From the sequence record MZ311865.1: a stretch of DNA of 64,000 nt; one strand, given 5' to 3'. Under the pieces are notes generated by a model. That model saw nothing but the letters and a program-made list of their open reading frames with translations, did not search any database and had not been told where the DNA came from. How positions within the stretch are numbered: position 1 is the first letter of the stretch; every line of letters starts with the position of its first letter. Below are positions 2,277 to 60,898 of this stretch, piece by piece. The translations under genes and the position numbers were made by a program. The stretch is from Escherichia phage vB_EcoM_LNA2.

Positions 2277-3445
2277 AAGTATTCCAACGTCCAGGATATC
2301 CTAACTTAAGCGTTAAATTATACCAAGATTATTCGGCTTGGCAAGAAAATAGATACGTTGAACTCGCGGCAACAATAACAACTTTAACCATGCGAGATTC
2401 GCTATATGGAAGAAATGAAGGGATTCTTCAATTTTATGACACTAAAAACATCCACACTAAAATGGACGGTAGACAGATAGTTCAAATCTCTGTTTCAAAT
2501 TCAAACACACCTCTCCAAGTTAGAACTCGAATTTATGGATGTAGACATTATTCTGTGTCTGTGGACTCAAAAGGTGACAATATTATTGCAATTGAGCTTG
2601 GAACAATACATTCTATAGAGAACCTTAAATTTGGGCGACCATTCTTCCCGGACGCAGGCGAATCTATACGTGAAATGTTAGGTGTCATATACAAAGACCG
2701 TGCGTTAATTACTCCGCCAATAAACACTATTAATGCTTATGTTCCTGATATTCCTTGGACAAGCACATTTGATGATTATTTGGCATATGTCAGAGAATTA
2801 GGACTTGCTACAGCGAGTGATAAGTTCGTATTCGTATGGCAAGATATTTTAGGCGTAAACATGATTGACTATGATACTCTTATTGGTCAGGAAGGCATTA
2901 AGATGATTGTAGGCGAGCCAAATACTGTAGGTCAGTATATTCAAGAGCTTGAGTATCCATTAGTATGGGATTTCACCTGGATGACTAAAGCTAACCAATT
3001 TACAAGAGACCCTATTAAAAACGCCACGATATTCGCTCATTCATTTTTAGATACATCTATTCCGGTTATTGTTACAGGCGATGGTGATAACGCTATTCTT
3101 GTGTCAAGATCTGGTGGATATTCCGAAATGACCTATCGTAATGGATTTGAAGAAGCAAGTCGTCTTCAGACAATGGCTCAATATGACGGATATGCTAAAT
3201 GCACTACTACAGGTAATTTTAACATAACGCCTGCTACTAAAATTATATTTGTTGACCAAAAGAACCAATTCAAATCCGAATTTTACGTAGATGAAGTTAT
3301 TCATGAGTTATCAAATAACAACTCACAAACTCATCTGTACATGTTTACCAACTCAATGGTGTTAGAACCTGTTAACCCAGTTAAGGTTAAAAATGAACTT
3401 AAATCTGATTCTACCTCTAAAGAAAATAATTCTACCACAGTCTAA
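2273..3445 (+). CDS. 27: baseplate hub protein gp27
   Basis: 390 aa (T4 gp27 391 aa); ATGA overlap with gene 51; synteny. Confidence 0.85.
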
Positions 3446-3926
3446 TAAAAAGGTAATGATTCCTAAATTAGGGCTCAAACATTATAATCTTTTAAAGGAC
3501 GTTAAAGGCCCTGATGAAAACATGAAAATCTTAGCTGATTCTATTTGTAAAAATATGAGTCCCGCAGATTTTGATTTTGCATGTCTACACATATTGGAAT
3601 TTAATAACAAACTTAAGTCTGAAGTTGAAAAAGATGGATTCACTTATAAACTAGATGACGTCTATGTATGCCAACGAACAGAATTCCAATTTCAAGGTAA
3701 TACTTTTTATTTTAGACCCCCAGGCAAATTTGAACAATTCGCTACAATCAGTGAAATGCTATCAAATTGCTTAATAAAAGTTAATGACGAAGAGAAAGAA
3801 ATTTCTTTCCTTGAGATGCCTGCTTTTGTAATCAAATGGGCAGAAGACCTTTCGACAACTATTGCTATTCCGGGCCCTAATGGTCCTATTAAGGGTATAG
3901 CAGAAATTATTGGATTGCTTGAATGA
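3393..3926 (+). CDS. 28: baseplate hub distal protein gp28
   Basis: 177 aa, T4 gp28 length; overlaps 3' end of gene 27 as in T4. Confidence 0.8.
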
Positions 3927-5695
3927 AACCTGAAGAAATGAAATCCATGCGTAGAAATAAGGTCATTGCCGATAATAAACCACAAAAAGTAGCTGCAACA
4001 GCAGCTACCGATTCATTAGAAGCATTGAATGACATTTCATCAAAACTAGACGATGTCCAAGCCGCGTCTGAACTCACATCACAAAGTGTAGAAGATAAAG
4101 GCAATGGAATTATTGAATCAATTGGAGACTTAAAGAATTCGACAGATAATACTGCTGAAGGCACAGAGCTTATCGCAGAAGTTATTGAAAAACAAACTGA
4201 AGTCACTAAAAGTATAAACGAAGTTTCTAGTGCAATAAGCTCTAAGTTAGACCGATTAGCTACATTATTAGAGCAAAAATTACAAGCATCTACCGCTATT
4301 CAAAATACAGGAGGCACCTCTCTTGAAGTAATTGAGAACGCGATACCTGTTAAAGTGGTTGAGAATGAAACTTCTGATGAGTTGTTTAAAGCATTACCTA
4401 CACCTGAAAAGATTGATAATAAGCCAGACGAAGATTTCTTCCCAACACCGGTTCAAGAAAGTGCTAATTCTACTTCCGATTCTAAAGGCGGAATTAGCTT
4501 TAAATTGAGCGATAAAATTGCAATGCTCACCAAAACAGTTCAAACCGGGTTTAATAAATCAATATCAATTTCAGACAGAATTGCTGGAATGCTTTTCAAA
4601 TACACTATAACAGCTGCTATTGAAGCAGCAAAAATGGCCGCACTTATTCTTGGTATTGTTATCGGTATTGATTTATTGATAGTCCATTTCAAATATTGGA
4701 CAGACAAGTTCACTTCTGCCTGGGATTTATTTGATGAAAACTTTACTAAATTCTCCGATGAAGCTAAAGAGTGGGGTAAATTCTTAAGCGATATATTCAC
4801 CTCTGTTGACTCGATAAAACAATTATGGGAAGCTGGAGACTGGGGTGGTTTAACCGTTGCTATTGTCAAAGGTGTAGGAACAGCATTAATGAACTTAGGT
4901 GAACTAATTCAATTAGGAATGGCTAAACTCTCCGCGTCTATATTGCGTGCTATAGGTTTTGGCGATACGGCGGACGAAATAGAAGGACGTGCTTTAGAAG
5001 GATTCCAAGAAACTACTGGGAACAAATTAAAGAAAGAAGACCAAGAGAAAGTCGCTAAATATCAAATGAAGCGTGACGATGGGGAATTAGGAACCGTTTC
5101 TAAAGGTCTTGATATGTTACAACGCGGCAAAACATTCGTTACTAACTGGGTTCGTGGTAATGACAATAAAGAAGAGTTTAGTACAAGCGATGAGCGTGCT
5201 GCGGAATCAGCAAAATTAAAAGAGCTACCTGAAGAGGAGCGTAAAGAGGCATATATAAAAGCTAATGAAACTCGTGCGGCACTGGTTAGATTTGAGGATT
5301 ATATCGATAAAATCGATATGACTAATCCGGAAAATGCTAAAAACGTCGAGAAGTCTTATGCTGATTTAAGTAAACTTATTAAAGACCCTGAACTTAATAA
5401 AACTCCTGTTGTTAAAAAGGAAATAGACGCTAGATTTGAAAAGCTAAATAATAAAATGGCTGAAGCCAAAAAGGCTCAGACAACAGTTAAGCCTGAATCT
5501 TCGTCTAAATCTCCAGAAGCAAAACAAGTTCAGTCAATAGAGAAAGGACGTGCTTCTGAATCTAAACAACAGCAACCGGTAGCGGCGATTAGTAACACAA
5601 ATAATGTCGTCAAAAAGAATACCGTAGTCCAGAATATGACCCCTGTAACAAGTACAACGGCTCCTGGAATTTTCCATGCCACCGGTGTTAATTAA
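3923..5695 (+). CDS. 29: baseplate hub / tail length determinator gp29
   Basis: 590 aa, T4 gp29 length; extended low-complexity charged regions typical of tape-measure-like gp29. Confidence 0.85.
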   Translation: MKPEEMKSMRRNKVIADNKPQKVAATAATDSLEALNDISSKLDDVQAASELTSQSVEDKGNGIIESIGDLKNSTDNTAEGTELIAEVIEKQTEVTKSINEVSSAISSKLDRLATLLEQKLQASTAIQNTGGTSLEVIENAIPVKVVENETSDELFKALPTPEKIDNKPDEDFFPTPVQESANSTSDSKGGISFKLSDKIAMLTKTVQTGFNKSISISDRIAGMLFKYTITAAIEAAKMAALILGIVIGIDLLIVHFKYWTDKFTSAWDLFDENFTKFSDEAKEWGKFLSDIFTSVDSIKQLWEAGDWGGLTVAIVKGVGTALMNLGELIQLGMAKLSASILRAIGFGDTADEIEGRALEGFQETTGNKLKKEDQEKVAKYQMKRDDGELGTVSKGLDMLQRGKTFVTNWVRGNDNKEEFSTSDERAAESAKLKELPEEERKEAYIKANETRAALVRFEDYIDKIDMTNPENAKNVEKSYADLSKLIKDPELNKTPVVKKEIDARFEKLNNKMAEAKKAQTTVKPESSSKSPEAKQVQSIEKGRASESKQQQPVAAISNTNNVVKKNTVVQNMTPVTSTTAPGIFHATGVN

Positions 5696-8130: not shown

Positions 8131-8160
8131 ATAGTATCACACATCCATGTGTTTGTAAAC
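8131..8160 (-). promoter_or_regulatory. early-type promoter cassette (GTTTAC -35, TACTAT -10, hairpin around -10) inside alt 3' end
   Basis: Minus-strand reading GTTTAC-18nt-TACTAT with inverted repeat GGATG...CATCC flanking the -10, followed by GAGG RBS and ATG. Confidence 0.5.
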
Positions 8161-10247
8161 TATCCTTGGACAAATTTAAACGGAACTGATTCTAAATCCA
8201 TTAAAGATGCTAACAATTTCAAACCTTTAGGTGCACTAGTTTTTTCTACAAATGAGGCAAAAGATACCGGCTCATCTGATTCGATTTCACCAGTCATAGC
8301 AACTACCTCGCCTGTTTCCATGAGAACATCACCATCGTAAATGACAGCTTCGTCCAACTGGTCCGAGGACATGACTTCAGCTTGAATAAATTTAAGGTTG
8401 GATTCTAAACCTGCACCGGTGTCAGATGACGCATCTGTAATTTTATTTATCTGCAAGAGAATGCCTCTAGGCAAAATAATTTCTTGCTCATTAGGGTGAT
8501 TACTCAACTGTCCTGGATAAATCACGTTAACTTTATGGGCACCATCAATAGCCCATCCAACGTTAACACGGATTTGTTCTGGTGCATGCATAGCTGTTCT
8601 TACTTGACTAGGAGAAATAGTAACACCTTCGTCATTATTATCAATGTTAAGCTCTTTGCGAACTTCTTCAGGAGCAAGTCCAAGGGCAACGTTCTCTTTA
8701 AACCCGCCGAAAATAATAGGAGCTAGTGAAGTGGAAACATAGTTTCTGAAGTAGAATACCTTATTTTTAACCATTGCTTCGTAAATAGGCATTCTGATAG
8801 ACTGGGCTCTATACAACGTTAGTCCTTCAGGTAAACGGTCTCCATTTAAAAACGCCGAATCAAGACCATCAATAGCGCGTTTAACTTCATCTTCATCTGC
8901 AACATCATAAAAATCCGGTTTATAACGGCCTAACAACATATTATTGATATCGGTATACGCAGAAGAGGCATATTCGCGAATAGCTCGTTTTTCAGCAACA
9001 GAGTATTGTTTAGGGTCCCGATTCATTGTTATATTAAAGGTGCCTCTAGCCGATTCCCGTGCATAAGTATACATCACATTAGACAAGAACGCTGATTTAC
9101 GTTGTTTCCAAGTTCTTTCAGATACTTCAGCTAAAACGTCGTCGGGCAGTTGGAAATTATCACGTCTAAAATCTTCAAACCATTCGTCTTTAATAGAGTC
9201 TGCAATTTCATTTGCAGCTTCAACAAAAGCAGCTAATGCTTTAACAGATGTTGTTTTTTCAGTTTTAATTTTCTTAGCAAACTTTTCTAAAGTTGGCTTA
9301 ATAACACTACCATAAGAAACTTCATCGGCAAATCTAAAGGATTCATCAATACGATTATAAATCTTATTTTCGATATCAGCAACTAAAGTGCCTTTTGCTG
9401 TGGACGATGCTTGGGCTAGTACGATTTCATATGCTTCAGGAAGTAATTCGGCTGTAGCTGGGCCGCTAACTTCTTTAGCAGAATTTTCGTATTTCTGGAA
9501 TAACTCACCTTCTTGACGGTCAGCTTCTAAAGATTGACTTGCTGCAATAGCACGACGAGAAATTTTAGTACGAGCAATAACAGGCTTATCTTTACGTTTT
9601 TCTTCTACAGCAGCAATAGAACCAGCGATAGCCGTTTCTTTGGTGACCATTTCGCCAGTCTTTTTACTCACATAAACTTCGCCAACATCAGAATCTACTT
9701 TCGTGTACAACTCTGTGTTAATGTTAGGGATGCCTTTAATATCTTCAATGTTAGCATTTTTACGAACCATCATCACATAGGTGTGTTTACCTGTGAATTG
9801 ATACATTGCCGACAATACTTTAAAACGACCACCGGTTTTAGTAGAAACTAAACGAGCAAGAAGAGTTTGAAGTTGTTGTCCGCGTCCTTTCAATTTCTTG
9901 GTAGGGAATCGGAACAGAACTGCATCCATACGAAGAGCTTTAACCTGTTCATATACTGTATTGAAAATGGTGTTGATTGCATCAATAGGAGCAGGACCAA
10001 GGCCATTTTTCAATTCAGCGAGATTACCCTTTTCAGACAGACTCATAATAACAACATGAGCGTATTTGTCGCCAAGTTTAACTTGTTTTACAGCATCGCC
10101 TTCAGAAAGGTAAGAGAATAAGCGAACTACGATGTTTGTATCAACATCACCAATTTTCCAGACTTGTGGAACTTTAGCTTTAGGGTTCAAATTGACGACA
10201 GGAAGACTGCCTTCAGATTCAAACACTTCATTTAATTGTTCAGACAT
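8160..10247 (-). CDS. alt: Alt ADP-ribosyltransferase (head-packaged)
   Basis: 695 aa (T4 Alt 682 aa); position between gene 54 and DNA ligase as in T4. Confidence 0.85.
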   Translation of the reverse strand: MSEQLNEVFESEGSLPVVNLNPKAKVPQVWKIGDVDTNIVVRLFSYLSEGDAVKQVKLGDKYAHVVIMSLSEKGNLAELKNGLGPAPIDAINTIFNTVYEQVKALRMDAVLFRFPTKKLKGRGQQLQTLLARLVSTKTGGRFKVLSAMYQFTGKHTYVMMVRKNANIEDIKGIPNINTELYTKVDSDVGEVYVSKKTGEMVTKETAIAGSIAAVEEKRKDKPVIARTKISRRAIAASQSLEADRQEGELFQKYENSAKEVSGPATAELLPEAYEIVLAQASSTAKGTLVADIENKIYNRIDESFRFADEVSYGSVIKPTLEKFAKKIKTEKTTSVKALAAFVEAANEIADSIKDEWFEDFRRDNFQLPDDVLAEVSERTWKQRKSAFLSNVMYTYARESARGTFNITMNRDPKQYSVAEKRAIREYASSAYTDINNMLLGRYKPDFYDVADEDEVKRAIDGLDSAFLNGDRLPEGLTLYRAQSIRMPIYEAMVKNKVFYFRNYVSTSLAPIIFGGFKENVALGLAPEEVRKELNIDNNDEGVTISPSQVRTAMHAPEQIRVNVGWAIDGAHKVNVIYPGQLSNHPNEQEIILPRGILLQINKITDASSDTGAGLESNLKFIQAEVMSSDQLDEAVIYDGDVLMETGEVVAMTGEIESDEPVSFASFVEKTSAPKGLKLLASLMDLESVPFKFVQG

Positions 10248-13075: not shown

Positions 13076-13539
13076 AAAGAGTCTCTTAATAGGTTTAACA
13101 CATCAATAAATTCAGCTTCGGTTAATATTGTATCATCTTTTGTTAGGTGGCTGGCCATGCTGTGCTTCAAAATTTTTCCTTTAGAGGCTTGTAAGGCATC
13201 GCGAAACCCCTTGTTTTGGATCGCTGCTTCAAAATATGCATTTGTATATAATTCTTTCCATGCTTCAGAGTATCTTGAAAATGGAACTCCTAACCAGAAG
13301 AGAGTCCCACTGTCCTGAGCTCTTGCGTAAGACCTTCCAGCTTGCTGTGCAGCCAATCCAGACAACCCAAATATACGTCTTTGTTGTTCAACATTTTTCA
13401 CCTTACATCCTTGGAGAAATCCTTCAAGACCTCCGAATTGAATACCATCCATAACAAAAGGCCATTGAGCAAAGTTACTTAATGCACATGATGGCCATTT
13501 GAAATTACTTCTTATTTCTAATTCAGACATCTTTAACAC
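13072..13539 (-). CDS. YbiA-like NADAR-domain protein (30.3 position)
   Basis: 155 aa; LSNFAQWPFVMDG resembles the E. coli YbiA/NADAR core motif (FSNFAAWP..VDG). Confidence 0.6.
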   Translation of the reverse strand: MLKMSELEIRSNFKWPSCALSNFAQWPFVMDGIQFGGLEGFLQGCKVKNVEQQRRIFGLSGLAAQQAGRSYARAQDSGTLFWLGVPFSRYSEAWKELYTNAYFEAAIQNKGFRDALQASKGKILKHSMASHLTKDDTILTEAEFIDVLNLLRDSL

Positions 13540-13741
13540 TTATAATTTCAACATCAGCCCAATGACCGTATCCAGGTATACGGTCTTCGATAGATAAATT
13601 TCTGTCATTTTTAGGCATTTTAATTGACGTAACGTATGGTTCTAAACGGTTTTCTGCATAATGTGGAAAAACGTCTGTTACACGATAAGTAACTTCAATC
13701 ATTTCCGTACCAAACAATTTCTGGATTAATTTATTCAACAT
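13523..13741 (-). CDS. hypothetical protein
   Basis: 72-aa ORF in compact operon. Confidence 0.4.
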   Translation of the reverse strand: MLNKLIQKLFGTEMIEVTYRVTDVFPHYAENRLEPYVTSIKMPKNDRNLSIEDRIPGYGHWADVEIISVKDV

Positions 13742-13928
13742 GTTTCAACCCTTTAATAGGAGATAACTCTTTACCCATACGTATGTCAGAAGTCCAATCA
13801 ACCCATTGAACAGCATACGCTTCATTGATAATTCCAGCGGCGGTTTTAAATTCAGGGAGAACTTTAAAAATCACCCCAGGAATTCCAACACCTTTTAATT
13901 GGACTGTTTGTGCTATTAAAAATTTCAT
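13731..13928 (-). CDS. hypothetical protein
   Basis: 65-aa ORF immediately downstream of a promoter cassette. Confidence 0.4.
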   Translation of the reverse strand: MKFLIAQTVQLKGVGIPGVIFKVLPEFKTAAGIINEAYAVQWVDWTSDIRMGKELSPIKGLKHVE

Positions 13929-13952
13929 ATTTTTCCACTTACTAAAGAAATC

Positions 13953-13983
13953 ATTATACTCTAATCCGTCCTTGGATGTACAC
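13953..13983 (-). promoter_or_regulatory. early-type promoter cassette (GTGTAC -35, TATAAT -10)
   Basis: Minus-strand GTGTAC-spacer-TATAAT with CCAAGG palindrome in the spacer; -35 overlaps the stop of the 204-aa ORF. Confidence 0.5.
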
Positions 13984-14597
13984 TACTTAATGAAATTAAT
14001 TTCTACCGGATGAACAACAGGTTGAGCAGTGATATATTGAGTAATTGCTTTCATGACTAGAGCTTCAGAACCAGGATTTTTCTCAACGAATTCACGTGCT
14101 AGGTTATGAGCTTCAAGTTCACTTAGTAAACCACTTCGTTGACATCCACGGTCTTGAGTACCCTGTTCAGATAAAAAGGCGACGATGTATTTTTCATCGT
14201 CATACGGTTTAGACGGTTGAGCAAATGTTCCTTTACTTCCAAAAGGAGAGTTATGACGCCACATCACGCCGTTAGGAGTTTCAACCTTCGTATATTCGTG
14301 TGGGCCATTTTTCTTAGTTTCTTGATGTGGAACTTCGTGGACCTTAGGGTTAGGACATTCAATAAAATGCTCATCTAAATCGGTCGAGAATATTAAAGAA
14401 AAACAATTACTAAATTTACCAACACCTGCCTGATAAATTTTACCTTCAGACGTTCTAATTTCACAAACCGAGCCGGCATCAGTAACTTCTAAAACTTCAA
14501 AAGGCTCGATAAGGTCATATGAGAACATGTTTTTAAGGCGTGGAGTAATATCCCCATTTTTAAAATTCATTTTATAAAAAGTATTAACTTTAAACAT
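13983..14597 (-). CDS. hypothetical protein, 204 aa, no recognisable T4 counterpart
   Basis: ORF with GAGGA RBS, preceded by a terminator hairpin and followed by a promoter cassette. Confidence 0.55.
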   Translation of the reverse strand: MFKVNTFYKMNFKNGDITPRLKNMFSYDLIEPFEVLEVTDAGSVCEIRTSEGKIYQAGVGKFSNCFSLIFSTDLDEHFIECPNPKVHEVPHQETKKNGPHEYTKVETPNGVMWRHNSPFGSKGTFAQPSKPYDDEKYIVAFLSEQGTQDRGCQRSGLLSELEAHNLAREFVEKNPGSEALVMKAITQYITAQPVVHPVEINFIK

Positions 14598-14609
14598 AAT
14601 TTCCTCAGT

Positions 14610-14625
14610 GGGAGCCGAAGCTCCC
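14610..14625 (-). terminator. UUCG-tetraloop hairpin
   Basis: GGGAGC-cgaa-GCTCCC on plus strand. Confidence 0.55.
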
Positions 14626-14632
14626 AGTTAAA

Positions 14633-14998
14633 TTAGATATCGAATTCATTAAGAACTACATCAAAGATTGCTTCGAGATGTTCAGGTTTAGCTCGATGAC
14701 TCAGGATATGACGAATCCAAGTTTTAACCAGAAGTTTACGATTAACACCGTTCCAGCAAGGATGGGTACCTAAATCACGTTGACGGAAATCGTCATCTAA
14801 AGCGATTTTAAAAGTAGAACCTTCCATCGTGATTGAAACCGTGATGCCATTTTCAAATCGCATATAAACGTAATTAGGAGTCATGCACTGTTCGATTTCA
14901 CAAACTGTACCGTTTTCATGTTTCCATAAGCAAATAACTTCAGAAGAACCAGCGATACCGTTAGAAACATATCTGCGTTCGAAGTTGATGTAGTTCAT
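14633..14998 (-). CDS. hypothetical protein (30.7-like position)
   Basis: 121-aa ORF. Confidence 0.45.
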   Translation of the reverse strand: MNYINFERRYVSNGIAGSSEVICLWKHENGTVCEIEQCMTPNYVYMRFENGITVSITMEGSTFKIALDDDFRQRDLGTHPCWNGVNRKLLVKTWIRHILSHRAKPEHLEAIFDVVLNEFDI

Positions 14999-15039
14999 TT
15001 TATTCTCCAGATGTTTAAGTTGTTTGTTGGTACAGGTCT

Positions 15040-15068
15040 ATAATAACATAACCTGTACCAAAGTAAAC
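15040..15068 (-). promoter_or_regulatory. early-type promoter cassette with 9-10 bp hairpin around -10
   Basis: Minus-strand GTTTAC-17nt-TATTAT; inverted repeat GGTACAGGT...ACCTGTACC flanks the -10. Confidence 0.5.
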
Positions 15069-15072
15069 TGTT

Positions 15073-15441
15073 TTATGCAACTTTAATCCAATTGTCTAAA
15101 TTTAAAACACCTTTGGCTTTCATTTTTTCGATCAGGCTATCTGCTGTAATGCGTCCATTTTGATACCATGTAACATCTTCAGAGTAACCAGTTTCTTCGT
15201 CAACATATGTTTCTGAACGAATTTTACCGGTAATAATAGTTTTTAATTCGTATGTGTCACCTGTGAAAAAGTTTGCTAACACAATTTTCCAAGAGAAATC
15301 ATCTGAAGGACCTTCAGGGGTCATACAACCTACGAACTCAAATTGCTCTTTGTATAACATCCACCGGAATTCTTTAATTTCGATAGCTTTATAACCGCCG
15401 TGGTCTTTACATTTGATGTATGAGTTCAGATTGATTTTCAT
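15073..15441 (-). CDS. hypothetical protein (30.8-like position)
   Basis: 122-aa ORF. Confidence 0.45.
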   Translation of the reverse strand: MKINLNSYIKCKDHGGYKAIEIKEFRWMLYKEQFEFVGCMTPEGPSDDFSWKIVLANFFTGDTYELKTIITGKIRSETYVDEETGYSEDVTWYQNGRITADSLIEKMKAKGVLNLDNWIKVA

Positions 15442-15483
15442 TTTGTTCTCCGGTTTGTTTTATTGATTAGGTGGTACAAGTCT

Positions 15484-15512
15484 ATAGTAACACATCCTAC
15501 AGGAGAGTAAAC
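15484..15512 (-). promoter_or_regulatory. early-type promoter cassette
   Basis: Minus-strand GTTTAC-17nt-TACTAT upstream of ORF 15073..15441. Confidence 0.45.
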
Positions 15513-15550
15513 ATCTTTTTTTAAACTTTTTCTGCCCTAAACGCACAAAA

Positions 15551-15568
15551 GGGAGACCGAAGTCTCCC
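15551..15568 (-). terminator. UUCG-tetraloop hairpin
   Basis: GGGAGAC-cgaa-GTCTCCC on plus strand, immediately 3' of the small basic ORF. Confidence 0.55.
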
Positions 15569-15573
15569 TAAAT

Positions 15574-15753
15574 TTATGCAACAACCTTTCCAAAACGAGA
15601 AGCATCATCTCGAAGAACTGCACGTGCTCTGCGCATGATCTTCTCAACTGTTTGATTAATACGAGAGTTCGACCCACGCTTGTATCCAGCGCGTTTAGAG
15701 GTACCATCAACTTTCTTTTCAACTGCTTTCTTTGCTTTAGCTTGTTTTGCCAT
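15574..15753 (-). CDS. small basic protein, 59 aa (missed by ORF track)
   Basis: Hand translation: MAKQAKAKKAVEKKVDGTSKRAGYKRGSNSRINQTVEKIMRRARAVLRDDASRFGKVVA; Lys/Arg-rich; stop followed by terminator hairpin. Confidence 0.5.
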   Translation of the reverse strand: MAKQAKAKKAVEKKVDGTSKRAGYKRGSNSRINQTVEKIMRRARAVLRDDASRFGKVVA

Positions 15754-17093: not shown

Positions 17094-17664
17094 AAAAGTT
17101 TCGGATTTGTTCCCAATTCAGAGAACGAAGATTATTACGAGAGTACTGAATTACTTCAATACCGGCTTGTTTTAGAATGTCTGCCCAATTTTCAGGAGAT
17201 CGATCGTATAATTCTGCGTATACAACCTTTTTAATACCTGACTGCGTAATAGCTTTAGTGCAATCAGGACATGGAGAAAGCGTCGTATATAACGTAGCGC
17301 CTTCAATAGAATTACCTTTACGAGCTGCAAACAAAATTGCATTCAATTCTGCATGGATTTCATTATTAGCAGACCATGCACTATGAGCGGCCCGATGTTC
17401 TTTAGCCAAAACAAAATTATCTGCCCGTCCAAATGCTGTAGTGCCTTCTTTATGTCCAGCAACGATGACCGGGCTTGGTTTATTCTTCAACCAACCATTT
17501 TCGGATGCATGTTCACAACAGTTAACGCCACCTGCTGGTGAGCCATTATATCCAGTAGAGATAATGCGCCCATCTTTTTCAATGACTGCGCCAACTTTCC
17601 ATGAACAACATTTTGATTCTTGAGAAATCAGATATGCAATCTGAAGGTATGTGCTAGCTTTCAT
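17083..17664 (-). CDS. cd: dCMP deaminase
   Basis: 193 aa; zinc-binding deaminase motifs HAELNAI and SPCPDC; T4 Cd length. Confidence 0.9.
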   Translation of the reverse strand: MKASTYLQIAYLISQESKCCSWKVGAVIEKDGRIISTGYNGSPAGGVNCCEHASENGWLKNKPSPVIVAGHKEGTTAFGRADNFVLAKEHRAAHSAWSANNEIHAELNAILFAARKGNSIEGATLYTTLSPCPDCTKAITQSGIKKVVYAELYDRSPENWADILKQAGIEVIQYSRNNLRSLNWEQIRNFCGE

Positions 17665-18656
17665 TATTGAACCTTATTAATATAAGTTAACAGCTCTTTA
17701 GTTTGTTCCCAACTGATGCACGCATCGGTAACGGAAACGCCATAGGACATATTATCAGAAATTTTTTGATTTCCTTCATGTAGGAATGATTCTATCATAA
17801 TTCCTTTGACCAAATCATTAGCTGCTAAATTTTTACCAATACCAATTTGATTGCTATAATGTCCATCAGCGTTTGCATGGCTACAGTCAACCATTACATA
17901 ATGATTCAGACCTACTGCCCTTGCTTTGTTAGAAGCTTCTTGAATATCAGAAGAATGATAGTTCGGGCCGTTGGTCCCGCCACGCAATACGATATGCGTA
18001 TTCTGATTACCTTCAGCTTCAACAATGCCTACAGTACCATCGACGTCCATACCCATATACCGATGAGGCCAGGCGGCACTATACATCGCGTCTGTAGCTA
18101 CTTTAATAGAACCATTGGTTGCGTTCTTGAAGCCTACGCACATCGGTAGACCTGAAGCAATTTCACGATGTGTCTGACTTTCAGTCGTACGGGCGCCAAT
18201 AGCAACCCATGAGAAAATACCAGAAAGATACTTAATCGTGAATGGGTCTAATACTTCAGTTGCTAATGGAAGTCCCATACGTAGAAGTTTACGACACAAT
18301 GTTCGTGCAACTATAAGACCGTGGTTCATATCAAAACTTCCGTCAAGATATGGATCATTTACAAGACCTTTCCAACCTACGGTAGTTCGAGGCTTTTCAA
18401 AATAAACGCGCATCACTAACAGAACATTAGGAAGACGAGTTTGAAGTTCAGCCAGACGTTTGCCGTATTCAACAGCAGCAATAGGGTCATGAATTGAACA
18501 AGGACCTACAACAATAAGTTTGCGTGGGTCTTCACCATTCATAATCGAATTAACTTGTTCGCGATGAGAAGCCACTTGTGATGCGTAAGCTTCCGACAAA
18601 GGAATAATCTCAGCTAGTTCTTTTGGAGAAATAAGTTTTCCGACGACAGGTAACAT
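17664..18656 (-). CDS. DAHP synthase (phospho-2-dehydro-3-deoxyheptonate aldolase), AroF/AroG-like
   Basis: 330 aa with class I DAHP synthase signatures (VVGPCSIHDP, RVYFEKPRTTVGWKGL, GARTTESQTHRE, VMVDCSHAN, GVSVTDACISWE); locally higher GC than flanks. Confidence 0.85.
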   Translation of the reverse strand: MLPVVGKLISPKELAEIIPLSEAYASQVASHREQVNSIMNGEDPRKLIVVGPCSIHDPIAAVEYGKRLAELQTRLPNVLLVMRVYFEKPRTTVGWKGLVNDPYLDGSFDMNHGLIVARTLCRKLLRMGLPLATEVLDPFTIKYLSGIFSWVAIGARTTESQTHREIASGLPMCVGFKNATNGSIKVATDAMYSAAWPHRYMGMDVDGTVGIVEAEGNQNTHIVLRGGTNGPNYHSSDIQEASNKARAVGLNHYVMVDCSHANADGHYSNQIGIGKNLAANDLVKGIMIESFLHEGNQKISDNMSYGVSVTDACISWEQTKELLTYINKVQ

Positions 18657-30024: not shown

Positions 30025-30054
30025 ACTATAACATAACCCTATCTGATTGTACAC
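30025..30054 (-). promoter_or_regulatory. early-type promoter cassette with hairpin around -10
   Basis: Minus-strand GTGTAC-18nt-TATAGT; stem GATAGGG/CCCTATC encloses the -10. Confidence 0.5.
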
Positions 30055-30446
30055 TACTTTTTAAAAGTTTTTTGCAAAAGTTCGATGATTTCGTCGACGT
30101 TGGTTTCATCTACGATACAATGGATTTTTGTTACACCTAAAGCTATACCTTCGTTAGTAGGTTGAGGCTTTACTATATCTACCTCAGTAAAGTATTTGAA
30201 CTCGTCAGGATAAATCTCAAAATAAGTTTCAATTTCACCACCGGCAGAACATACAGTACCATCTTCCATAGTTACACTTACTACGTTTGACGTATCGCTA
30301 TCATAATCAGGTTCCATTCCGTTTACAACAAAACTAGGCCCGTGGAGTTCAATCAATTTTAACATCTTAGCGTTATTGTGTGGTGCTTCTTGAACAAAGT
30401 CGTCTTTAAATAAAGGGTTAATGATATAAGATTTTCCGATTTCCAT
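30054..30446 (-). CDS. hypothetical protein (frd.3 position)
   Basis: 130-aa acidic ORF. Confidence 0.45.
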   Translation of the reverse strand: MEIGKSYIINPLFKDDFVQEAPHNNAKMLKLIELHGPSFVVNGMEPDYDSDTSNVVSVTMEDGTVCSAGGEIETYFEIYPDEFKYFTEVDIVKPQPTNEGIALGVTKIHCIVDETNVDEIIELLQKTFKK

Positions 30447-57507: not shown

Positions 57508-57951
57508 TTATTTAAATTTAATTTTCTGAAGTGCATCAATTGCAGCTAAACGCCCTTGTTCACTTTTAACTGTAATGACCACATCGCCTGATACGATCAC
57601 CGAACCATCAACAAATTCTATAGAGCCTTTTTTGAAATCGACAGCTGTATCTGGTTCCGGAACTTCTTCAAAGAATTTAAATTCTGCACCATAAATCAGA
57701 ATATCACCTTGCATACTAATGATTGTACGTCTAGGTCCATCGGTTTCAGCGGCAATCATTGAAACACCATAACCAATCATCTCTTCTACAATAAAATCTC
57801 TTGATAATAAAACTGTATGCAGAGTAGTGTTAAGACGTTTACCAGTTGTATTAAGAATTCTCAAGAAATTATCTTCTTGACCTTTGATAATACGATATTT
57901 CTTACCAACTTCAAAACCTTTAAAACCTTTAAAAGCCGTATTAAAAGCCAT
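57508..57951 (-). CDS. hypothetical protein
   Basis: 147-aa ORF, TAATTATG junction with the upstream zinc-ribbon ORF. Confidence 0.45.
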   Translation of the reverse strand: MAFNTAFKGFKGFEVGKKYRIIKGQEDNFLRILNTTGKRLNTTLHTVLLSRDFIVEEMIGYGVSMIAAETDGPRRTIISMQGDILIYGAEFKFFEEVPEPDTAVDFKKGSIEFVDGSVIVSGDVVITVKSEQGRLAAIDALQKIKFK

Positions 57952-57953
57952 AA

Positions 57954-58133
57954 TTAACCCTTCTTAAGTAAGTCGTAAAAACCACCGTTCACATGTTTAG
58001 GAGCAGAAACCCGACGAGTAGACAGACGATGACATTCAGGGCAAACATCGTTTTCTCGTTCAGAAATCCTTTTAATTTTTTCATATTCATGACCACAATC
58101 TTCAGATTGACATTTATAGTCGTATAACGGCAT
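57954..58133 (-). CDS. small zinc-ribbon protein (FmdB-like CxxC...CxxC), 59 aa (missed by ORF track)
   Basis: Hand translation: [59 protein letters not shown]; two CxxC pairs; TAATG overlap with the upstream ORF. Confidence 0.55.
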   Translation of the reverse strand: MPLYDYKCQSEDCGHEYEKIKRISERENDVCPECHRLSTRRVSAPKHVNGGFYDLLKKG

Positions 58134-58564
58134 TATTGTTCCTTAAAGTGAGCTTTCAACATTTGATACAAAGACCATGCCTGGTCGTTATTTTCGATAG
58201 TAATCGTCATCACCGGAAATTCAGACAATTCATCAAGTTCACCAGAATCTTGCTCTTCAGACTCTTGATACGGATTTCCAACTTCGTCAAAGAACTCTGC
58301 TTCATTCGTGGAGAGCCAGATAAAGTTTTCATCAAGGATGTCACCGCCTGTTGCGTATCCAACCATGCCAGTAGATGTCACAATTTTAGTAGGACGACCA
58401 AGATGGTCAACATCTAATATTTTAAATGGTTCCATGCCAAGACGTCGTGCGTAAATCCCATTATCAGTGTGGTCTTTAATAAACTCTTCTTGGGCACGTT
58501 TATCTTTAAATTGGTACCATGAGTTAACGCGGAATTTATTAGCCATTAGTAAGTTTCCTTCCAA
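58133..58564 (-). CDS. hypothetical acidic protein
   Basis: 143-aa ORF. Confidence 0.45.
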
Positions 58565-59414: not shown

Positions 59415-59834
59415 TTATGCAAAAGATGCTGGACAATATTTTTTGATTTGGAACTCAGGAACTACCATGAACTGTCCAGCAAAAACAATGTTATAAAGCT
59501 TGACTCCATCTTCAACCCATTGGTCACTGATGAACCCAGCGACTTGATTCGTTGTCCACGGTGTTCCATCTGTCGCAGAGGCAATGGTGAACTTGTGGTC
59601 TTTTACAACTAAAACCGATCTGCACAGTTTCCATTTGAACGCTTTTTCTTCCGGTTCAATGAATTGGCTTTTAACGTAACCAATGTTACCATCGGCGTCA
59701 CGAACTTTAACTTCGTTACGTCCAAAAACAGGATCACTCACATAAAGAACTTCAACCAACTTCCCGGCAACTTTAGAGCGAGAAGCATCCGATACGTGTA
59801 CATAATCACCAATAGAGAGATTTGCAATATTCAT
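59415..59834 (-). CDS. hypothetical protein, paralog family member 1
   Basis: 139 aa; C-terminal GFISDQWVEDGVKLYNIVFAGQF block shared with the two upstream ORFs. Confidence 0.5.
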   Translation of the reverse strand: MNIANLSIGDYVHVSDASRSKVAGKLVEVLYVSDPVFGRNEVKVRDADGNIGYVKSQFIEPEEKAFKWKLCRSVLVVKDHKFTIASATDGTPWTTNQVAGFISDQWVEDGVKLYNIVFAGQFMVVPEFQIKKYCPASFA

Positions 59835-59843
59835 AATAATTCC

Positions 59844-60341
59844 TTAAGCTTTACGAGGAGACACATAGCGAGTGATTTCAGATTCTTCAACAACTCGGAA
59901 GTCACCTAAGAATACAATATTGTATAGCTTTTTACCATCTTCAACCCATTGGTCGCTGATGAAGCCGCACATAGTATCAGTTTTGCTTGGATAACCGTAT
60001 TCGTCGATGTAATCAAATTCTTTATCGGTTATAAATTCAACGCCTTTGCAAAGGGCCCATTTGAACTGTGTAGTAGGCTCAACGATATCGCTTGAAGCAA
60101 AGTGTGCAGGTGCAACTTCTTCGCTTGAAGCAAATTGGACTCGTATATGTTTTTCCAGGAATTTAGGACTTACGTAAGCATACTGGGCATCTTGTCCGCC
60201 AAAACTGGGGATGATTCGAACTTTAACTTCTTTAACACGTCCCATGCCGTTAGTACGAAGCCCTGCTACTTCAACCAGACGACCTGCAGCTTTAGAACGA
60301 GAAGCAGGAGATACACGAAGGATTTCACCAATAGTAATCAT
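59844..60341 (-). CDS. hypothetical protein, paralog family member 2
   Basis: Track ORF 59844..60404 trimmed to internal ATG at 60339-60341 (MITIGEILRV..., 165 aa); C-terminal GFISDQWVEDGKKLYNIVFLGDF. Confidence 0.5.
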   Translation of the reverse strand: MITIGEILRVSPASRSKAAGRLVEVAGLRTNGMGRVKEVKVRIIPSFGGQDAQYAYVSPKFLEKHIRVQFASSEEVAPAHFASSDIVEPTTQFKWALCKGVEFITDKEFDYIDEYGYPSKTDTMCGFISDQWVEDGKKLYNIVFLGDFRVVEESEITRYVSPRKA

Positions 60342-60371
60342 ATTTTTTCTCTCTTTGTTTAAGTTGAATTC

Positions 60372-60402
60372 ATTATACTCCATCCATCCTTGGATGTAAA
60401 AC
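60372..60402 (-). promoter_or_regulatory. early-type promoter cassette
   Basis: Minus-strand GTTTTAC-18nt-TATAAT with CATCC..GGATG stem in the spacer. Confidence 0.45.
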
Positions 60403-60403
60403 A

Positions 60404-60898
60404 TTAATTAAGAATATTAACTACTGCACTACGTGGAACAACACTAAAATCACCAGCATGAACAACGTTAATAAGTTCAACACCATCTTCAATCCACTGG
60501 TCAGTTACCCATCCACTCACTGGACCTGCGAACGGACGTCGAATTGAAACGGCTTTACACAACAAATCAGTAGGCTCAATAGGCTTAATCAGAGTACCGT
60601 ACATACAAGCGATGTCCATATCAAAGTGGAGACCATCTTTAACAGGTGCTTCTTCAATCAAGAGTTCAAAGTCGGTGCTCGGAAGGGCAGTAGTAGAAAT
60701 TGTACCGTATGAATTTTTAATTTCTAAGAATAACCAAGGGCCTTCAACTTGTTTGATGAAGTTAACAATAGTGAAACTATTACCTTGAGTGGCACCTAAA
60801 ATTTCACAAAACTTTTCATAAGCTCGCACTGAAGCACCGTACCAATTGATTTGTTTTTCGTCTTTCAGGATGTAAGTAGCCGTAGTATTGATATTCAT
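60404..60898 (-). CDS. hypothetical protein, paralog family member 3
   Basis: 164 aa; C-terminal GWVTDQWIEDGVELINVVHAGDF, divergent copy of the same domain. Confidence 0.5.
   Translation of the reverse strand: MNINTTATYILKDEKQINWYGASVRAYEKFCEILGATQGNSFTIVNFIKQVEGPWLFLEIKNSYGTISTTALPSTDFELLIEEAPVKDGLHFDMDIACMYGTLIKPIEPTDLLCKAVSIRRPFAGPVSGWVTDQWIEDGVELINVVHAGDFSVVPRSAVVNILN

Follow-up and report, generated by a model that had tools for sequence, protein, structure and literature searches.

Gene 30.6A of an RB69-like phage, which takes the place of gene 30.6, appears to encode a divergent two-domain relative of GoF

Introduction

The GoF/Frd.2/MotB.1 family of Tevenvirinae phage proteins was recognised only in 2025 (Kim et al., 2025, PMC12152347). 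Its members are limited to T4-like and related large myoviruses, lie in early accessory clusters with several paralogues per genome, and combine a β-barrel N-terminal domain (residues 5-90 of GoF, also called ComC-α, in Kim et al., 2025) with a flexible acidic/Pro linker and a small variable C-terminal domain, a plan that the protein described here appears to share. No activity has been demonstrated for wild-type GoF or MotB.1; RNA is stabilised by the D25Y mutant only, and GoF(D25Y) stabilises gene 41 mRNA (PMC12152347). A second described system is the PeSL cassette of T4-type hyperplastic regions, a promoter/stem-loop unit (Arbiol et al., 2010, PMC2839356; Comeau et al., 2014, PMC4122927).

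Here, we analysed 64,000 nucleotides (the window) from Escherichia phage vB_EcoM_LNA2 (MZ311865.1), a Mosigvirus (RB69-like T-even phage). A preliminary description, made from the sequence, had singled out a 204-aa ORF in the 30.x cluster as an orphan gene in an insulated module, bounded upstream by a UUCG terminator hairpin and downstream by a promoter cassette.

Results

Gene 30.6A is widespread and under purifying selection

The ORF was confirmed as an ATG-started, TAG-terminated frame of 204 codons with GAGG 5 nt upstream (Table 1). Its minus-strand neighbourhood reads cd, 31.1, 31, rIII, 30.9, 30.8, 30.7, 30.6A, 30.5, 30.4, 30.3, 30.2, 30.1, and ligase 30, and phages vB_Eco_mar005P1, JK42, and SA79RD are 98% identical to the window across the region. 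The gene does lie, as described, in a variable accessory block near 30.2, 30.3, and Alt (8160-10247); the ligase gene is also close. Elsewhere on the same strand, a gene for a 330-aa DAHP synthase (17664-18656; PF00793, 5e-75), Tyr-sensitive AroF-type according to the SA79RD annotation, lies immediately upstream of the dCMP deaminase gene. T4 has no DAHP synthase auxiliary metabolic gene at the corresponding position.

Table 1. Coordinates of gene 30.6A, its parts and its regulatory surroundings (positions in the window unless another sequence is named)
Feature	Coordinates	Strand	Basis or remark
Gene 30.6A	13983..14597	-	204-aa CDS, TAG included; allelic alternative to T4/RB69 gene 30.6
Predicted N-terminal GoF-like SH3/LSm-like β-barrel domain, aa 1-~85	14343..14597	-	profile similarity
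Pro/His/charged linker, about aa 86-92	14322..14342	-	low pLDDT; family alignment
C-terminal module, aa 93-204: four-strand β-meander, then β-loop-α-β unit	13986..14321	-	
Conserved polar loop SEQGTQDRGCQRSGL, aa 143-157	14127..14171	-	alignment; block pLDDT 85-95
Shine-Dalgarno GAGG of 30.6A	14603..14606	-	5 nt ahead of ATG; RBS annotation in TuIa; kept in 5/5 phages
UUCG-tetraloop RNA hairpin, 30.7/30.6(A) intergenic	14610..14625	-	fold and five-phage alignment
Promoter-like TGTACA-N18-TATAAT	13953..13982	-	10/12 consensus positions; in 54-nt spacer before 30.5
T4-early-type promoter GTTTAC...TG..TATTAT upstream of 30.7	15040..15068	-	scan; early promoter in SA79RD annotation
Shine-Dalgarno GGAG of 30.7	15005-15008	-	sequence
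GoF-plan proteins in 30.x gaps	L015 4870-5379, 5841-6311; L017 2878-3366, 3828-4322; L005 (CkP1) 2461-3939		

Using tblastn, we found full-length 30.6A in 113 phage records at 94-99% identity. The gene itself was already known: it has been annotated since the TuIa entry (GenBank AJ621579, 1,418 bp), which uses the name 30.6A and marks a stem-loop and RBS before the gene and -35/-10 signals after it. Its product is PHROG 17531 (E 1e-143). With these records, and with the GoF paralogue family in T4 described below, the label of orphan falls away. A full-text literature search for "30.6A" returned irrelevant numeric matches only.

Searches for homologues in collections of 5.8 billion and 1.84 billion proteins (representatives, HMMER) revealed a very small family that divides into N-terminal and C-terminal relatives. 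Seven matches came from the 1.84 billion representatives; one of these, a 1117-aa repeat protein (P0007), was set aside as a compositional artefact. IMG/VR scans added one further, near-identical locus. Homologues in other genera, at 45-50% identity, retain open frames. Among five 30.6A alleles the differences are mainly synonymous (dN/dS 0.06-0.40), a pattern of purifying selection, and on these comparisons 30.6A behaves as a real gene under selection. In two phages, G2469 (MK327934.1) and SQ17 (MW882907.1), 30.6A aligns as two pieces, indicating a frameshift; in G2469 this leaves a 115-aa N-terminal fragment annotated as an N-domain-only protein (P0002). The frameshifts may be either natural pseudogenisation, which would make 30.6A dispensable, or sequencing error.

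30.6A and 30.6 are exchanged in the slot after 30.7

The slot following 30.7 has several occupants. The order is 30.7-30.6 (95 aa)-30.5 in T4, 30.7-30.6 (93 aa)-30.4 in RB69, and 30.7-30.6A-30.5 in the window, and a metagenomic Mosigvirus-like contig carries a third alternative, the 146-aa protein P0008. gp30.6 occurs in 614 records, compared with the 113 that contain full-length 30.6A. RB69 (L012, 4674-5175) lacks 30.5, so that 30.4 directly follows 30.6; Mosigvirus phages thus differ in the 30.6/30.5 segment in more ways than one.

Although they occupy the same slot, the two proteins have no sequence relationship, and gp30.6 is half the length. BLASTP gave E 1.6 and hhalign a probability of 0.15%, on which homology to gp30.6 was ruled out, and 30.6A has no match to phrog_2153, the gp30.6 family. 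The earlier impression that the ORF has no T4 30.x counterpart thus stands.

What 30.6A does share with 30.6 is the upstream junction. The end of 30.7, the hairpin, the Shine-Dalgarno sequence, and ATGTTTA, which supplies the first two codons, are common to the window, RB69, and T4, and divergence begins only beyond them; SP18 has an equivalent hairpin (GGGGC-GAAA-GCCCC) together with the Shine-Dalgarno sequence and ATGTTTA. Downstream, T4 30.6 overlaps 30.5 as TAATG, and the 30.6A alleles have a 54-nt spacer that carries a promoter-like element and provides 30.5 with a weak RBS. These junctions indicate that 30.6A is a replacement of 30.6, allelic but non-homologous.

A conserved hairpin, and probably a shared early transcript

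The hairpin ahead of 30.6A (GGGAGC-UUCG-GCUCCC, 14625-14610) has a GC-rich stem of six G-C/A-U pairs, with a seventh, U-A, pair possible; its 61-nt context folds at -14.4 kcal/mol (z = -2.1). In an alignment of the window, TuIa, RB69, T4, and SP18, 100% of cells are paired and one AU<->GC pair is compensatory, while the loops vary (UUCG/UUCA/GAAA). This supports, but with only five sequences does not prove, conservation as a structure. A terminator-scan match at 14620-14603 is another, weaker pairing, and Rfam over 13400-15600 gave sub-threshold chance matches only.

The hairpin reported upstream was real, but it is unlikely to act as an intrinsic terminator: the stem is followed not by a U-run but by ACUGAGGAAAUUAUG, which contains the Shine-Dalgarno sequence and start codon, it is kept in RB69 and T4, where 30.6 follows instead, and it stands directly before the RBS. 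Since it lacks a U-tract, we read it as a conserved intercistronic RNA structure rather than a terminator that arrived with 30.6A. Nor does it bound a module, because it belongs to the 30.7/30.6 intergenic region whichever gene follows and abuts the RBS. As a hairpin that is unspecific, lacks a U-tract, and adjoins the RBS would hardly insulate the gene, 30.6A is likely co-transcribed with 30.7, most likely as the second cistron of an early transcript from the 30.7 promoter (15040..15068). The description as an insulated module is hard to reconcile with this arrangement. This regulatory region was reportedly studied in TuIa and RB69 by Truncaite et al. in 2006.

A passage in PMC9409239, which cites Truncaite et al. 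2006, describes T4 30.7 as an early transcript with RegB cleavage in the Shine-Dalgarno region. In the window (14991-15068, minus strand), GGTACAGGT...ACCTGTACC form an inverted repeat that encloses the 30.7 early promoter; the GGAG Shine-Dalgarno sequence that comes next is a RegB cleavage motif, and the 30.8/30.7 junction is a PeSL-like terminator/promoter composite of the cluster.

On the downstream side, the TuIa counterpart of the promoter-like site is GTTTACA, annotated as -35/-10, and SA79RD has a promoter annotated at the spacer. The element is present only with 30.6A alleles and absent where 30.6 overlaps 30.5 (T4). Promoter-like matches are not enriched in the region (10 vs 6.9 ± 2.5 in shuffles), and support for the site therefore comes from its conservation with 30.6A alleles and the TuIa annotation, not from scan statistics. 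Of the promoter cassette proposed earlier, the site itself remains; its significance in a scan does not. A terminator-like hairpin also occurs within the gene (14180-14202, minus strand, ~aa 132-140), consisting of TGACGATG-AAAAATA-CATCGTCG followed by CCTTTTTATC, at the boundary between the β-meander and the core C-terminal unit. With three terminator-like sites against 1.6 expected, it is probably due to chance.

As in PeSL cassettes, a variable gene has been swapped precisely at regulatory intergenic sequence, and a composite stem-loop and early promoter is found one gene upstream, at 30.8/30.7. Unlike PeSL cassettes, the 30.6A flanks are half-elements (stem-loop only upstream, promoter-like site only downstream), and exchange on the upstream side took place at the conserved hairpin-SD-ATG block. 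We rejected a strict PeSL cassette around 30.6A, as composite units are missing on both flanks, and also a homing-endonuclease or mobile-element origin, as the protein has no nuclease domain.

The N-terminal domain is related to GoF

The N-terminal part of 30.6A matches phrog_622 at E 6.5e-5. This is the GoF family: the goF orthologue of the window (58133-58564, minus strand), at the T4 goF position after 39, 39.1, and 39.2, scores 9.7e-39. When the N-domain profile was compared with all 722 ORFs of the window, it found goF (E 1.7e-5). BLASTP of 30.6A gave E 4e-5 against the window GoF and 0.002 against T4 GoF, and hhalign aligned the N-domain with GoF residues 5-90 at a probability of 95.6% (E 1.2e-8); the alignments behind these family profiles were shallow (3-16 sequences). 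When 30.6A was included in a broader family HMM, the model also retrieved the Frd.2 gene of the window (E 0.002). We conclude from these profile comparisons that residues 1-~85 form a distant paralogue of the GoF N-terminal domain within the GoF/Frd.2/MotB.1 family. Homology searching thus yielded a relationship to GoF and not the clear homology to a T4 30.x protein that would have placed the ORF among known cluster genes.

The sequence similarity to GoF spans these ~85 residues, with only about 26-30% identity over the barrel. 30.6A belongs to the 30.x cluster and GoF to the 39-motB cluster; the insert that bears D25 in GoF is shortened; and, at about 110 aa, the C-terminal domain far exceeds that of GoF in size and has a β-meander and an ExGTxxRxCxRS loop that are missing in GoF. 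30.6A is not among the members of the "LSm-like fold" family named in the main text of PMC12152347. The N-terminal domain is acidic (pI 4.9 for aa 1-80), as is, to a lesser extent, the whole protein (pI 5.8).

Further matches to the N-terminal part (aa 1 to ~100) are P0008 and, in Justusliebigvirus and phAPEC8-like phages, the Phi92 gp003-like proteins of 150 aa (phrog_3710); the Phi92-like proteins in turn match Pfam FRD2 weakly. P0008 and the Phi92-like proteins share the N-terminal domain and the terminal β-α-β unit of 30.6A, and P0008, from the identical slot after 30.7, also starts MFKVNTFY...EPFEVLEV. Unlike 30.6A, these relatives are only about 146-151 aa long and lack the β-meander of about 45 aa (NGxHxYT...WxHNSPxG) and the GTQDRGCQRSG loop.

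Single-sequence AlphaFold modelled 30.6A at pLDDT 40; with a 16-sequence alignment, AF2 reached a mean of 66. Structure prediction, which had been suggested as a check, was thus informative for one half of the protein: the C-terminal module is confident (72-95) and the N-terminal part patchy (30-70), with a disordered linker. In the N-domain, where a family member would have a bent, five-stranded antiparallel sheet, strands were placed at 7-8, 33-38, 44-49, and 54-56, and pLDDT was below 50 for 13-28 and 61-91. With the model patchy there, the barrel fold is assigned mainly from sequence profiles. Foldseek against viral models returned the protein's own family first, followed by numerous T4-like phage proteins of 145-166 aa that are uncharacterised.

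Pfam gave no match for 30.6A, and PDB sequences yielded no useful one to queries with either the protein alone or profiles. No PADLOC model matched; that library covers defence, not anti-defence, proteins. We found no profile or fold similarity to ART, macro, or NADAR domains and, across Pfam, NCBI-style profiles, and the PDB, no enzyme family similar in sequence or fold. The link to ADP-ribosylation hinted at in the preliminary description thus found no such match in Pfam, PADLOC, or the PDB.

The C-terminal module is a rare, mobile unit of the 30.x cluster

Model confidence is low at about aa 80-92 and then rises into an α/β module. Allelic differences cluster at aa 82-90, most substitutions falling in the linker. 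GC content is 0.31 over the first 240 nt (14358-14597) and 0.41 over the linker and C-terminal module (13983-14357), which is compatible with a chimeric origin.

A search of 5.8 billion proteins yielded no more than seven 90%-identity clusters with the module (aa ~93-190), all of them from within the T-even 30.x cluster. The E, G, T, R, C, R, and S of the ExGTxxRxCxRS loop are invariant in all seven C-domain sequences. The module also occurs alone, as proteins of 116-152 aa in SP18 (Gaprivervirus; annotated gp30.6A), C6 (Dhakavirus), CkP1 (Karamvirus), and metagenomic T4-like contigs (P0003/P0006). These are 45-75% identical to the 30.6A module and have all the loop residues, but they lack a GoF-like N-terminal domain, and their genes always occupy the interval from 30.9 to 30.8 rather than the slot after 30.7. 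An ordinary 30.6 is kept beside the stand-alone gene in SP18 and C6, unlike in the window. In L015, a 173-kb T4-like metagenomic contig, a gene for a 182-aa protein with a RyR domain (ryanodine-receptor repeat, Pfam; 3382-3930) lies between 30.9 and the stand-alone C-domain gene.

The last helix-strand unit of the module aligns with the C-termini of the Phi92-like proteins, P0008, and CkP1_0225. The terminal β-α-β unit is thus common to GoF-like two-domain proteins such as Phi92 gp003-like and CkP1_0225, and in 30.6A it is enlarged by the β-meander and the loop.

Other GoF-like genes in the window and in related phages

All the following genes of the window are on the minus strand. A second, diverged GoF-like gene (57508-57951; 147 aa; phrog_622, 3e-19) stands in place of T4 39.1; it and the goF orthologue adjoin gene 39, and a gene for a 59-aa Zn-ribbon protein (57954-58133; PF09723) lies between the two paralogues. 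The Frd.2 orthologue (30054-30446; Pfam FRD2, 1.9e-35) is immediately downstream of gene 32. There is also a MotB.1-like gene and, with the Frd.2 gene retrieved by the family HMM, the GoF/Frd.2/MotB.1 superfamily has five or more members in the window. Three tandem genes (59415-59834, 59844-60404, and 60404-60898) share a MotB-like C-terminal block, GFISDQWVEDG..LYNIVF.G.F.VV, and the N-terminal start of the last resembles T4 MotB.1. The motB region looks like a local paralogue expansion.

In other T-even genera, barrel-linker-α/β proteins of 143-179 aa fill gaps between 30.8, 30.7, and 30.5 (E 5e-4 to 0.05 in a small database; Table 1). On statistics that are weak to moderate, the 30.x cluster would be a nursery of GoF-like two-domain proteins.

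Discussion

With somewhat better than even confidence, we read Mosigvirus 30.6A as a real early accessory gene that replaces 30.6 and joins a GoF-like barrel to a C-terminal module in a dispensable binding or adaptor protein. The gene is probably expressed early: the early promoter of 30.7 would drive a joint transcript of 30.7 and 30.6A, the tetraloop hairpin would serve as a structural or stability element of the RNA before the 30.6A RBS and not as a terminator, and the 3′ spacer of the cassette would give 30.5 a promoter-like element and RBS in place of the TAATG coupling of T4. By family analogy only, the product may act early in infection, with the barrel mediating interactions in a generic way and the target set by the conserved loop of the C-terminal domain; that target could be RNA itself or a host or phage factor associated with RNA. 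Dispensability is suggested by the presence of 30.6 instead in RB69-like relatives and by the two frameshifted phages. The analogy says little about function, because wild-type GoF and MotB.1 have no demonstrated activity. Given this and the acidic N-domain, we rate direct RNA binding below protein binding.

Whether the gene has any function could be doubted from its frameshifted copies in two phages and the terminator-like hairpin within it, but a spurious or decaying ORF is scarcely credible and was rejected, because the evidence of conservation contradicts it: 113 records preserve the 204-codon frame, dN/dS is well below 1, the RBS is good, and both domains are conserved in other genera. 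An enzyme is also very improbable. The invariant Glu, Thr, Arg, Cys, Arg, and Ser might form a catalytic or phosphate-binding site, possibly related to ADP-ribosylation or nucleotides as for the neighbouring Alt, 30.2, and 30.3, and the polar loop is strictly kept across genera at 45-50% overall identity and confidently modelled. However, Pfam, NCBI-style profiles, and the PDB showed no enzyme family similar by sequence or fold, the domain has only about 60-100 aa, the Phi92-like and P0008 relatives keep the rest of the architecture without the loop, and the argument from neighbours is weak because the region is a mosaic of unrelated small genes. As GoF(D25Y) stabilises gene 41 mRNA and the N-domain is homologous to GoF, the protein could instead be an RNA-binding modulator of mRNA stability or processing that acts in the manner of this mutant, its substrates being the early mRNAs of the RegB/RNase E-processed cluster in which it is encoded. 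RegB is documented to target this region, and aa 93-134, in the middle of the protein, have a mildly basic composition (pI 8.4). We nevertheless think this distinctly improbable, as no such effect is known for wild-type GoF or MotB.1 (PMC12152347), the N-domain and the whole protein are acidic, and Pfam and PDB searches found no known RNA-binding motif.

A host-takeover or anti-defence effector, with the C-terminal loop inhibiting a specific host protein such as a component of defence or proteolysis, differs from the binding/adaptor reading only in that the target would be defence-related. The 30.6/30.6A/P0008 polymorphism would then be arms-race turnover. A slot with at least three unrelated or diverged alternatives in one genus is typical of arms-race loci, and the C-terminal domain has travelled as one unit from slot to slot and from genus to genus. 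Even so, we regard such an effector as unlikely: no characterised anti-defence protein matched, nor did any PADLOC model, where a match was not expected. It also seems quite unlikely that the C-terminal module is a so far undescribed domain, acting as an effector or binding a ligand, with the invariant loop recognising one particular host target. If it were, the GoF-barrel fusion in Mosigvirus would show that host-interaction proteins are built by domain shuffling within one hyperplastic region.

Taken alone, 30.6A reveals no new mechanism; it adds a branch to an established phage family and lies in a region already known to vary. An apparent orphan can now be placed as a divergent, domain-fused member of the GoF/Frd.2/MotB.1 family. 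At the slot after 30.7, no fewer than three alternatives (30.6, 30.6A, and the P0008 type) are swapped, with the hairpin/RBS block as the exact point of exchange. GoF-like two-domain proteins across the 30.x clusters of several T-even genera would make the family wider than recognised and offer natural domain-swap variants for functional study.
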